DNA of 64,000 bases from Eledone cirrhosa (Eukaryota), in contig OZ024744.1 of NCBI GenBank assembly GCA_964016885.1, positions 75,268,001-75,332,000 on the forward strand, given 5' to 3'. The notes below the pieces were generated by a model that did no database searches, had not been told where the DNA came from, and saw nothing but the letters and a program-made list of their open reading frames with translations. The stretch's first letter is position 1. Each line of letters starts with the position of its first letter. Of the stretch, positions 13,419-37,750 are shown in pieces. The position numbers and the translations under genes were made by a program.

Positions 13419-13635
13419 GAGAGAGAGAGAGAGAGAGAGAGAGAGAGAGAGAGAGAGAGAGAGAGAGAGAGAGAGAGAGAGAGAGAGAAACAGACAGATA
13501 GACAGACAGACAGACAGAAAGGAGTATTAGATAGACAGATATATATAGATAGATAGATAGATTGATAGATAGATAGATAGATAGATAGATAGATAGATAG
13601 ATAGATAGATAGATAGATAGATAGATAAATAGATA
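13419..13635. repeat. (GA)n-(GACA)n-(GATA)n tract abutting the 3' end of Tx1 fragment A
   Basis: Seen directly. Confidence 0.95.
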
Positions 13636-14876
13636 TATTTCTTTATTAGCCACAGGGGCACAAAAGAAGGGGACAAGTACAAAGGGGGAAGTTTACATAC
13701 AATAAAAACGTGTAAAATGTTATCACAAATGGAATTTAAAAAGTTAGTCGATTTTCCCCAATAGAGGGAGACAGTTTATATAGGTAACACATACCCCCCC
13801 CAAAAAAAAATGTACAACCCTCATCTCCAGGAGTAGGAAGAGTTTGTACTCCTTTCCTCTCCTCCTCCTTTTCCTCAACCTACAGGCTGATATAGAGAGA
13901 AGGCCCATTCACTCGGGCCATTCTCGCCACTTTCACCCACCTTTCATGAAACTTGCTGGGGTACAGCACCTCTCTCTCCATCCTGATTCTTCTTCCAAAG
14001 TGGTATTTGAAAAAAAGAATCAGTTGTTGGCCGGAGAGAAAGGTGTCTGACCTCAGCCCTTTCAACCTTGTCCACCATACAACCTCTTTCGCCATAGCTA
14101 TCACACAAAGGAAAACCGCCTCTCCTTCGTTTTTGAAGGAGGGTGGCGGTTTGATCATGACAATGGACTCGGTGGTCAACTGGATTGGTCCCACCCGCGA
14201 CAATAGTCGTTCTACATAGCCCCACAGGTCAGTGACGCCCGGGCAGTGTATGAATGCGTGCGCGACGGTTTCTTCGTCTCGCACGCACCTCGGACAGATC
14301 TTTTTTGCAGGGTCCCTGCCCGGGCGCCCATGTCTGTAGAGCTTGTCTCGAACTGGTAGAGCTCCTCGGTAGCACTGCCAGGCCAGGAGGGACTTTTGGA
14401 AGTTGTCCATCGGTCCCGGGCGGAAGGTCCTAGCGAACAGACTGGCCAGATCATCTTCCTCTACGCCTAGAGTTTCACCGAGCGCGTCGTCGCACTTGCT
14501 GCGGACCAACCCTCTATAGAATGACGAAGTGGAGTCTCCACTGATCGCCGGGTCCGCCTGCCAGAGGGCTGTGAGCCTGAGCACATTCGATGTGCCAGTC
14601 GCCCATTTTCCTCGGTCTTTGCTTGACCCAGGACTGCAGCTCGGTCAGCGAGACGAGTCGTGGGAAGGCTGGCCTCACGAACGGGGCCCACACCGGTTGT
14701 CCGGTGAGGAATACGTAGAGATGCCGCAGCCTGAGCGCGTGTTTAAGCATAGTCAACCACGGCATCCCCAGCCCTCCGTTAGAAGGGTGTTGGCAGCAGA
14801 TGGATCTTCTCACCAAAGGAGCCCGCCTCTTCCAAAGGAATCGGAAGAGCGCGCGCTCCATTTTGGCGAGCGTTTT
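13636..14876 (-). mobile_element. Tx1/L1-clade LINE, 5'-truncated copy A (post-RT region, CCHC, 3' UTR)
   Basis: ORFs 14514-14861 and 13880-14584 (GGLGMP, CPRC..DEET..H.F.HC). The 3' end reads aataaagaaatatatctat; (GATA)n lies on both sides. Confidence 0.93.
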
Positions 14877-14972
14877 GATAGATAGATAGATAGATAGATA
14901 GATAGATAGATAGATAGATAGATAGATAGATAGATAGATAGATAGATAGATAGATAGATAGATAGATAGATA
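14877..14972. repeat. Pure (GATA)n tract between Tx1 copies A and B
   Basis: Seen directly. Confidence 0.98.
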
Positions 14973-15775
14973 TCTTTATTTGCCACTGGGGCGTACAAAA
15001 ATTGGACATTACAAGACGTGACGGCGGGGGTTTTACATAAAAATAACTTTAACATTAATAAATAACAAACTATATATAATAAAATAACAATTGAAATCCC
15101 CAGTTTCTGATGAGTACAGTTCTTAGAAAAACATAAGAGAGAAGTTTTACACCCCGTGGATAGAACAACCCTCAACACCAGGAACACGTTTTGTTGGTGT
15201 TCCTGTCTTCCCTCTGTTTATCTTCCTCAATCTACAGGTTTATATACAGAAATCCTATTCACTCGGGCCATTTTTGCCACATTCACCCACCTTTCAGCGA
15301 ATTTACTGGGATATAGGACCTCTCTCTCCACTCTCACCTTCCTTCTGAAGTGATACTTAAAGAAGGGGATAAGTTGTTGTCCCGAGAGAAAGGTGTTTGC
15401 CCTAAATAATTCCACAGGTCGGTCACCCCTGGGCACTGAACATTTGCGTGCAGAACGGTTTCGATGTCCTGCTCGCATCTTGGACAGGTCCTTTTGGCAG
15501 GATCTCTGCCAGGACGTCCGTGCCTGTAGATTTTGTCTCGAACTGGTAGAGCTCCTAGGTAGCACTGCCAGGCCAGAGACCTCTGGAAGTTATCCATAGA
15601 CCCTGGACGGAAAGTCCTCCCGAACAGACTGGTCAGTTCGTCCGCCTAGAGTTTCCCCGAGAACGTCGTCGCACTTCTCCTCCACTAATCCCTTATAGAA
15701 TGTCGAAGTGGAGTCTCCGTTGATTGCCGTTTCCGCTTGGTAGAGGGCTGTGAGCGCTTGTAGGCACTCGAGGGT
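14971..15775 (-). mobile_element. Tx1/L1-clade LINE, 5'-truncated copy B with internal deletion
   Basis: ECLQALTALYQA..., DNFQRSLAWQCY, CPRCEQDIETVLH, FFKYHFRRK. A deletion near 15405 joins DLWNY to RANTFLSG. The 5' junction abuts degenerate gataggtagatagacagata. Confidence 0.9.
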
Positions 15776-34800: not shown

Positions 34801-37560
34801 AATCGATAGGGTTTAGCAGAGAGTTAGCCTTAGAGAAAAACATAATAGAAAGAGAACTAGTAGCCAAGGTAGAGGAGGCACTTAGAAGTGGCAACGCGGC
34901 TAGAGTGTTAGCGTCGAGAACGGCACTGGACCAGTTCTTCGATCCGAAACACGAAGGCTGCGTGGTCAGAAGCAAAACACTTGCTCTAAGAAACGAAGGA
35001 GCGAAAGCTGTCAGCTGGGCCCGAGTGGCGGATGCAAAAAGTGGCAACAAGACCACGATTCGGTCTTTGAAATACCAAAACAGACGCGTGCTACTTGACC
35101 CCCAAGCAAATGTGCACGGCCTTTCAGCAGCAATTTGCGCGACTGTTTGAGCAGAACGACGGTGAGCGGAACGTGGCAATGGACTTTAGTTCATACCTCG
35201 ACGGCCTGCCACGTCTCTCGAACAGTTACGCCGAGTTATGTGAAAGACTGATCACGGACACTGAGATACGGGACGTTCTGGTCCGCTGCGGGAAACGCAA
35301 GTCACCCGGACTAGATGGTCTACCCTATGAGTTTTACATAGGCATGCCGGACTTGTTCTCTGGCGTCCTCGAAGCCGTCTACTGCAATTGGCAGCAGAAC
35401 GGGAGAATTCCCAGTTCTGCATGCAAGGGCGTAGTAACGCTGATCAGGAAAGACGAGAACAAGAGGGGCGAAATTAACAACTTCAGGCCAATAACTCTGC
35501 TCAACACAGAGTTAAAGATTTTGGCCAAGGTACTAGCGACGAGGTTGGCGCTTGGCGTCGAGAACCTGGTAGGGAAAGCGCAAACGTGTGTAATCCCGTC
35601 CAGGTCCATGCACGACAACCTCCACCTCATGCGATACATCATAGAGAGGGTGGTAGTAAACCCGGCTTCGGTGGGGCTCTGATCTGGATCAGTCTAAGGA
35701 ATTCGATAGGGTCGACCATCGATACTTAGAAGCGGTCCTCAAGGCGGCAGGTTTCGGTCCTGTTTTCAGAAGCTGGATCGAGGCGATGCACACCAGCACC
35801 TGCTCGAGCGTCAAGGTGAACGGCTACCTATCGGAGCCGTTCGCAATCACGCGTTCGATTCGACAGGGATGTCCTCTCTCCTCCATTCTGTATGTATTGA
35901 CTCTAGATCCACTACTGAGCAAATTGGAGCTGTTGCAGGGCATCCTTCTAGAACCGAGCCTGCGCAAAGTGACGTCGGCTTATGCCGACGACGTGACGGT
36001 TATGTTGTCGAGCAACTCGGAAATCGGGGTGATCGTCAACTTACTGAAAGAATACGAAACGCTGACGGGAGCAAAACTAAACCCGGACAAGTCTGTCGGT
36101 TTGTAAGTCGGTACGTGGAGAGGAAAACCGATGACATCCGACAGCGTCGTTGGACGCTGGACGGACGGACCGGTGAAATTGCTCGGGGTCTGTTTCGGTC
36201 CACACCTCCAGGTGGAGAAAAACTGGAACGAGGTCACGGCCAGAAGTGGGCAGAGTGCAAACTGTCCTTGAAAGGTCGAGCGGAGGTGACGAACACTTTC
36301 ATAGCGTCCGTCATCTACTACCCCTTGACTGTCGTGCCTTGTCCCCGTGAACACCTCGCCAAGATGGAACGCATGCTCTTCCAGTTTCTGTGGAAGAAGC
36401 AGGCTCTGCTGGTGAAGAGATCCGACTGCTGTCAACACCCTCCCAACGGAGGGCTGGGAATGCCGTGGCTGATGATGCGCAAACATGCCCTGAGGCTGCG
36501 GCATCTCCAGGTATTCCTCACCGACCCCCAACCGGTGTGGGCACCGTTTATGAGACAGGCTTTCCCACAGCTGTCTCGCTGACGGAGCTGCAGTCCTGCG
36601 TCAAGAAAAGAGCGAAAACGATGGGCGCCTGGCACATTGAATGCGCTCAGGCGCTCACAGTCCTCTGGCAAGCGGGCGCAGCAATCAGTGGAGACTCCAC
36701 TTCGACATTCTATAGAGGGATTGTACGTTACAAGGGCGACGACGGGCTCGGAGAGACTCTGGGCGTCGAAGACGATGAGCTCACCAGACTGTTTGGTAGG
36801 ACTTTGACTTTCCGCCAGGGACCTATGGACAACTTCCAGAGGTCCCTGGCCTGGCAGTGCTACCGAGGAGCTCTACCGGTTCGTGACAAGAACTACAGGC
36901 ACGGACGCCCGGGCAGGGATCCTTCCAAGAGGACGTGTCCAAGATGCACGCAGGACATTGAAACAGTCCTGCACGCAATTGTACACTGCCCGGGCGTAAC
37001 TGACCTGTGGAACTATGCAGAACAACTGCTGTCGCGTCCATAGTAAGGATCAAACCGCCAGCCTCTTTCAAAAACGAAAGAGAGGCGGTTTTTCCTCTGT
37101 ACGGTGGCCATGGTGAAAGAAGTTATATGGTGGACGAGATTGAGAGGTCTGAGGACAGATGCCTTTCTCTCCGGACAACAATTGATTCCCTTCTTTAAGT
37201 ATCACTTTAGAAGGAGAATCAGAGTGGAGAGAGAGGCACTGCACCCCAGTAAATTTACTGAAAGGTCGGTGAATGTGGCAAACATGGCCCGAGTGCTTGG
37301 GCCTTCTCTGTTTATAAGCCTGTAGGTTAAAGAAGAGAGCAAATGGAAGAAAGGGGCACTTGCACAACACGCTCCTGAAGTTGAGGGTTGTTCTGTCGAC
37401 GGGGTATTAAACAACCCATTTGTGGTGCTTCCCGCCTATTGGGGAGTTCGATTGTTATAATTGTTTGTTTTTATAGTTTTTACACGACTGTATGTAATAT
37501 CCACGGCATGTCTTTTTATTGTCTCCTTTTCTTGTGCAACCTTGTGGCAAATAAACAAAT
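31807..37560 (+). mobile_element. Tx1/L1-clade LINE, element 3 (full length, more decayed, divergent subfamily)
   Basis: ORF1 fragments with CFHCGNTAHLKASC; ORF2 fragments 33926-37325 (VGTVNVRG, GDWN, QGCPLS, YADD, CPRC); preceded by tatctatc/ctct and ending aataaacaaatatatctatctatct. Confidence 0.94.
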
Positions 37561-37572
37561 ATATCTATCTAT

Positions 37573-37750
37573 CTAGGGAGGATAACATTCCCGAGATCCA
37601 TGGACGAGATCTCTCCAGCGGTCTCTGTCCTTCATCATCGCCCTCATGTCCTGCGTCTCCCAGAGACCAGTGTCTATTCTTAGGGCATCAACATATGTCA
37701 ACCTCGGTCTCCTCCCTCTTCTAGTGTGTCCGTGTAGGGCGAATCCCACA
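37573..37750 (-). mobile_element. RTE-clade LINE extreme 3' fragment whose tail is (TAGA)n
   Basis: HGHTRRGRRPRLTYVDALRIDTG...MMKDRDRWR is a typical RTE C-terminus; the TAG stop runs directly into atagataga on the minus strand. Confidence 0.75.

Follow-up and report, generated by a model that had tools for sequence, protein, structure and literature searches.

The genome of the octopod Eledone cirrhosa contains families of long interspersed nuclear elements (LINEs) that insert in one fixed orientation into (TATC)n/(GATA)n microsatellites. Copies of five such families lie in a stretch of 64,000 nucleotides (assembly GCA_964016885.1, contig OZ024744.1, positions 75,268,001 to 75,332,000), which is called the window throughout. 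The TATC repeat is a target of these elements and not only their tail, and the association is real and not due to chance. We consider it probable, judging from the junctions of genomic copies, that the five families, which are L1/Tx1-like and encode an endonuclease of the apurinic type (APE), reach their sites by an endonuclease nick at the short motif C^TAT(C/A) combined with in-register pairing of the repeat-bearing RNA end. Two sister families, E4 and E5, are associated with (ATT)n.

A self-comparison of the window yields the copies A, B, 1, 2 and 3 as well as two more at positions 55093-59572 and 62613-64000, all of which are broken (Table 1). The first five copies belong to five different families, whose second open reading frames (ORF2) are 73-82% identical. 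Each family counts thousands of copies in the genome, and genomic copies have a median identity of 90-98% to their own family reference. A sequence-only reading of this DNA had described TATC on the sense strand at both junctions of the five copies, breaks of the truncated copies A and B at GATA repeats, and 3' ends of the form AATAAA(A)(G/C)A(AAYA)TATCTAT lacking poly(A). All three observations hold: TATC is seen at 10/10 junctions, the 3' end of copy A lies inside the GATA tract at 13545-13635 and its 5' break on (GATA)24 at 14877, copy B breaks at a degenerate GATA-like run (15778-15800), and the 3' pattern fits five of five copies. Because three tracts are each common to two copies, the window alone cannot part a target from a tail; a genome-wide sample can.

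The 3' part of each copy therefore served as a query against the genome (3.0 Gb), and the best 30 loci of each search were kept; 99 longer stretches around loci were retrieved to reach the 5' ends, together with the stretch adjoining the window. Junctions were called from chained BLAST matches to full-length natural copies. Thirteen rows were removed before counting (five self-hits, six duplicates, one without a 3' end, and one with a run of N), and copies running off the retrieved DNA were excluded from the 5' counts. A 5' TATC flank is defined as a run of at least 8 nt within 26 nt upstream of the junction, and copies are called solo if they are not stacked behind another copy. Since the first sets were ranked by similarity, a second, position-ordered sample was taken of family A, whose exact 22-base end has 6,335 occurrences in the genome, 5,267 of them followed by two bases and TATCTA; it comprises 88 of the first 100 places, 11 close neighbors and 1 place already sampled being omitted. 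A third sample was picked by pattern (30 of 57 places). Some loci show the same insertion with the same flanks at two or three places and represent segmental or assembly duplicates (L034, L039 and L040; L144 and L145; L400 and L401), and five loci are mosaics whose 5' part belongs to another family or variant than the 3' part (L006, L016, L018, L025, L046).

Of the 93 similarity-ranked truncated copies, 57 have TATC in sense orientation at the 5' junction and none has it in antisense orientation; the corresponding counts for the position-ordered family-A copies are 46/60 and 0/60. By comparison, 13,609 windows of non-element DNA contain a TATC run in 43 cases on the sense and in 47 on the antisense strand (0.33%). 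The repeat is also present upstream of 10/16 pattern-picked truncated copies and of 40/46 full-length copies. The sequence-only reading had reasoned that a self-templated tail would leave most solo copies with random 5' flanks; a tabulation of genomic flanks that includes 5'-truncated solo copies does not bear this prediction out, as 39/74 ranked and 24/34 position-ordered solo copies have 5' TATC. A survey of similar elements uses one repeat type in >20% of flanks as its criterion (PMC4494074); here, TATC accounts for 57/93 and 46/60 of the 5' and 137/141 of the 3' flanks. A considerable number of copies lie directly behind the 3' end of another family member, namely 26/60 truncated family-A copies and 19/93 ranked ones. 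Family-A ends about 6 kb apart, as in head-to-tail stacks of full-length-sized units, were observed at G000:C1:42070364-42082156, 52839452-52855342 and 63910231-63928970.

Target-site duplications, which are readable where the flanks are imperfect, define the site more closely. We found 22 TATC-family duplications that start exactly at the element 3' end; all 22 begin with TAT(C/A) and show no added bases, and in the 5' copy they are preceded by C in 21 cases and, as a single counterexample, by T in one. The 21 well-defined duplications are 9-21 bp long, with a median of 17. Duplications that begin with TAT(C/A) after a C imply that the repeat was present before insertion. Nine duplications have no TATC unit just upstream, and eight of these nonetheless keep the C at position -1, while the background frequency of C at such sites is 878/17,698 (5%; 22% with A left out). 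Hence, C^TAT(C/A) was already present in the empty site, and insertion does not need a long array; some insertions are indeed found in TATA or single-unit sites. Arrays are preferred beyond this core motif, given that 39/45 solo insertions at the motif lie inside a TATC run, against 142/1,057 background motif sites. The proposal of a (GATA)n-directed lineage is supported by solo flanks and duplications alike, as that of a lineage with fixed orientation and a preference for the repeat, with the refinements that the core is shorter than the repeat and that about a quarter to 40% of truncated copies have no 5' TATC run. In many truncated copies, the 5' end and the duplication share 1-7 nt of microhomology, and one copy (L337) has a short 5' inversion; 5' microhomology and 5' inversion are marks of L1-type insertion. 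Candidate duplications at L122, L127 and L071, like the register assigned to L142, were discarded as explained by chance or by overlap with a neighbor.

At the 3' junctions, the element is followed by TAT(C/A)T in 137 of 141 copies and in 80/88 of the position-ordered set, whereas a poly(A) run occurs in 1/141 and 0/88, respectively. Typical ends have AATAAA 6-7 nt ahead of the junction. The sole copy with poly(A) (L096; L227 in the longer stretch) carries about 23 nt of it between the element end and the TATC repeat, which suggests that the AATAAA signal is in use. Six copies (L008, L012, L019, L149, L471, L337) have an extra 4 or 8 nt of TATC-like bases at the 3' junction only. Alignment of three contig sets to window positions 31250-31769 gave no informative 3' loose end among the matches listed.

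A model that would account for these features, based on them and on standard target-primed reverse transcription, begins with a transcript that passes AATAAA and receives its poly(A) within the repeat that follows the element; with the usual cleavage distance of 10-30 nt after AATAAA, a few TATC units would precede the poly(A) at the end of the RNA. The endonuclease would nick the bottom (GATA) strand opposite C^TATM, although TAT on both sides means that the exact bond may be situated as much as 3 nt to the right. The RNA units would then anneal to the primer; poly(A) would normally not be copied, and 0, 1 or 2 units would be added. The top strand would be cut 9-21 nt downstream without a sequence rule. 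Since every insertion would leave TATC on both sides, later copies could stack. It is plausible that the 3' end pairs with the nicked strand: in-register annealing would account both for the rarity of copied poly(A) and for the extra TATC-like bases on the 3' side of six copies. Against this part of the model, a longer duplication with one to three point mutations is another reading of each extra-unit case.

An alternative is that the endonuclease alone sets the target, by motif and by the DNA structure of the array, and that the RNA ends at or just after its last unique base without any pairing. The C at -1 speaks for a contribution of the protein: it lies outside the primer and the stretch that RNA could pair with, most element ends have A there, and its presence in 21/22 duplications is not explicable by pairing, so it is probably read by the protein. 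The 22 duplications without added bases also suit an endonuclease acting alone, as does one position in the predicted beta-hairpin loop, where all TATC families have Ser/Thr and both E4 and E5 have Ile; it is, however, just one of the 28 endonuclease columns by which E4 differs from the TATC families. In L1/Tx1L chimeras, nicking is influenced by this loop (PMC1950540), and Kojima 2015 describes the endonuclease as the main determinant of target choice (PMC4494074). What an endonuclease-only mechanism leaves unexplained is that poly(A) is copied in 1/141 ends in spite of a kept AATAAA, and that six copies have extra repeat units on the 3' side only. We regard it as unlikely, and prefer the combination of nick and pairing.

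The two remaining families of the window shed light on the history of the target preference. ATTATT comes next to the 3' end of 50/53 E4 copies and TAT(C/A)T of none (0/53), and 28/29 E5 copies have ATT there. At the 5' end, ATT precedes 14/14 full-length E4 copies; 8/15 long E5 copies keep the family start, and all eight of these lie behind ATT. The outer flanks differ in both cases. Two duplications of 16 and 18 bp could be read (L283, L411), and they start at TT^ATTAT. Targeting of ATT by E4 and E5 is thus likely, but less firm than that of TATC by the other families. Several counts weigh against it: 5' ATT is found in only 2/10 truncated E4 copies, in 0/7 of the other long E5 calls, and in 3/9 short E5 copies, two of which are near-identical and have an intact start.

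The TATC and ATT family groups are 67-76% identical in ORF2. A tree of 679 ORF2 columns and 22 rows, in which each family is represented by two copies, unites the TATC families in one clade (support 100/100) with E4 as sister (94/99), and E5 as well as a protein of Argonauta branch outside. E4 and E5 as one clade is rejected (p-AU, approximately unbiased test, 0.0008), with the reservation that this grouping was named after the first tree had been seen. Because the TATC clade is nested within the ATT families, the simplest reading is a single switch from ATT to TATC; on this topology, the preference for TATC likely has a single origin in an (ATT)n-associated ancestor. No switch would have occurred if only the TATC families seek targets and their sisters carry ATT at both ends of their RNA. 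The small share of truncated ATT-family copies with 5' ATT (2/10, 3/9 and 0/7) is what one would expect in that case, yet the ATT upstream of 14/14 and 8/8 full-length E4 and E5 copies with differing outer flanks and the duplications at TT^ATTAT contradict it, and several of the truncated calls stop in sequence of low complexity or of another element. We therefore hold an absence of target seeking in the sister families to be rather improbable. As for the switch itself, a tentative and by no means favored idea is that the RNA acts as a self-renewing guide: read-through would copy units of the landing site, the endonuclease would read three to five bases and pairing would do the rest, so that one landing in TATC could redirect a copy's descendants with little change in the protein.

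Further observations concern the surroundings of the ATT families. Sister copies flanked by (ATT)n make up L061-L090, L281-L310, L392-L421 and L510-L524, where many (ATT)n tracts are tails of short interspersed elements (SINEs); long or full-length copies also seem commoner in the sister families than in the TATC families. In the window, a short interspersed repeat with an (ATT)n tail is present at 5947-6170, 6812-6980, 12063-12224, 42141-42321, 54172-54334, 60807-61032 and 62519-62613. The head of this abundant repeat is presumably tRNA-like. Between its last 30 nt and the LINE 3' ends there is a weak resemblance, but 12 and 26 of 500 shuffles score as high, and a tail shared with the ATT families was rejected on account of this weakness. 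At L181 (about 2560-5200), L079, L086 and L089, another kind of LINE-like element, which has a long reading frame on the opposite strand, adjoins ATT-family copies or lies within them. Very short 3'-end fragments of another related family at L314, L329 and L334 have ATT/ATC-rich surroundings and possibly belong to a third target class.

What remains to be weighed is whether the repeat could be a self-templated tail after all, like those of other LINE clades, with a weak insertion preference and 5' TATC derived from stacking or later repeat growth. The stacked copies (26/60 and 19/93) can be accommodated in this way, and so can the quarter to 40% of truncated copies without 5' TATC. It counts against a target that the 5' junction, as called, has no TATC run in 36/93 and 14/60 truncated copies. 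Of these, 26 TATC-family copies were checked, and most had no remnant of the element further upstream within reach, so that a secondary break is an assumption. In the window, the ten junctions amount to only seven tracts, those of A/B, 1/2 and 2/3 being common, and just two 5' tracts (B and copy 1) are not also the 3' flank of another copy. The truncated copies without 5' TATC may be later deletions or off-target insertions, and a few of these junctions abut the bodies of other Tx1 elements. Stacking and repeat growth do not account for the solo truncated copies, 39/74 and 24/34 of which have 5' TATC as compared to the 0.33% background and never in antisense, and duplications that include unique downstream bases put the motif in the empty site. 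A self-templated tail is largely refuted by these data and thus very improbable, and the repeat is a target. Least credible of all is a passive accumulation of random insertions that survive better in microsatellite-rich regions, as the review of target-specific elements describes for Waldo-A/B of Drosophila (PMC3812793): microsatellites abound in the window (226 tandem-repeat rows), but such a process would neither favor one strand (57 vs 0; 46 vs 0) nor fix the register, and it would not place TATC and ATT families in different repeats, with TATC at 0/24 E4 5' and 0/53 E4 3' junctions. Unless they stem from the sampling, the orientation and the family-specific flanks refute it.

Copies 1-3 share an ORF1 with a zinc knuckle (CX2CX4HX4C) and an ORF2 with APE, reverse transcriptase (RT) and a C-terminal Cys/His motif. 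The CCHC zinc knuckle in ORF1 is a feature of the Tx1 clade. The ORF2 has the layout of the L1/Tx1 group, i.e. N-terminal APE, RT, C-terminal Cys/His and no RNase H (Pfam: PF03372, PF00078 and, weakly, PF13966); its closest solved structure is human L1 ORF2p (PDB: 8uw3, 8sxt; E 2e-41), with the same APE-RT-Cys arrangement. The group's mark of 5' truncation and variable-length duplications is seen in the 93 and 60 truncated copies and in duplications of 9-21 bp. The elements are members of the L1/Tx1 group. Their placement in the Tx1 clade proper is likely. The best named protein match is from Argonauta hians (62%), followed by fish proteins including 'YTX2' (28%, 258 bits), and the match to human L1 reaches 145 bits, in a search separate from that of YTX2; a quick tree has an unresolved backbone and does not include human L1. 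The nearest database relatives are 40-43% identical, and the only named members of their cluster are Argonauta and Polyodon proteins. A metagenome scan produced 51 loci whose best segment is mostly 24-32% identical; none of the 23 inspected loci has a TATC or ATT flank, though many contigs end near the element. In most families, a GTAAG(T/C) motif resembling a splice donor lies some 25-30 nt into the element and has a second occurrence at the stop of ORF1, just ahead of ORF2 (in the window in the region of 20762 and at 22193-22201, 33879-33886 and 57198-57206); splicing from these motifs was not evident, as 0/28 internal deletions fit a donor-acceptor pair.

Among known elements, human L1 resembles the TATC families in its APE-RT-Cys layout and in the purine just 3' of the inferred nick, and its duplication length and 5' microhomology are also similar. 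It differs in that L1 primes on poly(A) at T-tracts, whereas the TATC families copy poly(A) in 1/141 cases and have a CCHC knuckle in ORF1. Waldo and Mino belong to the R1 clade, and Dong is an R4-clade element with a single ORF and a C-terminal restriction-like endonuclease. Waldo with (ACAY)n and Mino with (AC)n are similarly APE-type and directed to a tetra- or dinucleotide microsatellite (PMC3812793), but they are insect elements with another unit. Dong uses (TAA)n, the same repeat class as E4 and E5 (PMC3812793), and Dong-R4 elements are described as abundant in Octopus vulgaris (PMC13282606). An assignment of E4 and E5 to the Dong/R4 clade was rejected: unlike Dong, both align with an N-terminal APE domain, and they branch with the TATC families.

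The closest parallels are Kibi on (TC)n and Koshi on (TTC)n of teleosts and crocodilian Tx1 families on (TTCC)n/(TTTC)n, as reported in the main text of one study and in a review (PMC4494074, PMC3812793). These, too, are APE-type LINEs of the Tx1 group that prefer one microsatellite, and in which related families use related units; in contrast, their units are pure pyrimidine strands, while here the unit is TATC (ATT in the sisters), the host an octopod and the number of copies per family in the thousands. A precedent for annealing is provided by SART1Bm, and by R1Bm as cited there: a short target-like sequence at or near the 3' end of the RNA is proposed to anneal to the nicked strand (PMC7265360). 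Their targets are telomeric and 28S sequences, respectively, and annealing was tested in that work but is only inferred here. The review lists ACAY, AC, TC, TTC and TAA as targets and states that it is not well understood how APE-type LINEs pick microsatellites (PMC3812793). Neither GATA nor TATC appears in the main text of PMC4494074. L1-Tx1 elements are widespread according to the text of a mollusc survey (PMC10294476), and a repeat annotation of Octopus vulgaris reports 13 recently active L1-Tx1 families in a text where the word 'target' does not occur (PMC13282606). We found no TATC/GATA-targeting LINE in the literature searched; Repbase or the supplements and tree labels of PMC4494074 may list one.

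Table 1. Elements, repeat tracts and motifs in the window (positions count from its first nucleotide).
Feature	Position	Strand	Description
(TATC)n tract	13545..13635	-	GATA on +; 3' flank of copy A
Copy A	13636..14876	-	5'-truncated, 1241 bp; ORF2 C-terminus, 3' untranslated region, AATAAA 6 nt ahead of repeat
(GATA)24	14877..14972	-	5' flank of copy A = 3' flank of copy B
Copy B	14973..15777	-	5'-truncated, 805 bp; one internal deletion
Degenerate TATC-like run	15778..15800	-	GATA-like on +; at 5' break of copy B
(TATC)16 + TC-rich bases	20660..20732	+	5' flank of copy 1
Copy 1	20733..25888	+	family E1; both ends present, broken
Copy 1 motifs			ORF1 CCHC knuckle 21911; APE 22642, 22897; RT YADD 24234; C-terminal Cys/His 25200
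(TATC)n tract	25889..25952	+	common to copies 1 and 2
Copy 2	about 25953..31769	+	family E2; full length, ORF2 frameshifted
Copy 2 motifs			CCHC 27155; GDWN 28549; YADD 30185
(TATC)n/(TC)n tract	31770..31806	+	common to copies 2 and 3
Copy 3	31807..37561	+	family E3; full length, broken
Copy 3 motifs			CCHC 32988; APE (Pfam PF03372); YADD 35981
(TATC)3 tract	37562..37575	+	3' flank of copy 3
(ATT)n tract	55041..55092	+	5' flank of sister copy E4
E4 copy	55093..59572	+	sister family; 3' end lost; genomic E4 copies have (ATT)n flanks
E5 copy	62613..64000	+	sister family; 5'-truncated, continues past the window, ends in (ATT)n

The window has 40% G+C. Apart from the LINE copies, it includes a 52-bp minisatellite of 12 copies (5027-5640), a near-palindrome of about 270 bp (18330-18600), and an element of about 1 kb with long inverted ends, similar to a miniature inverted-repeat transposable element (18619-19676).

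While the concept of microsatellite-directed Tx1 families is known from fish and crocodilians, what is added here is the mapped core motif together with ATT sister families and a probable switch of target. Many (GATA)n loci in this genome are landing sites of LINEs, which bears on marker design and repeat annotation. The presence of sister families on different repeats in one genome, in combination with a cut motif and a candidate loop residue, makes the reading of the target by the endonuclease and its recognition by RNA pairing separable; the TATC and ATT families thus form a natural pair for the question of how such elements change their target.

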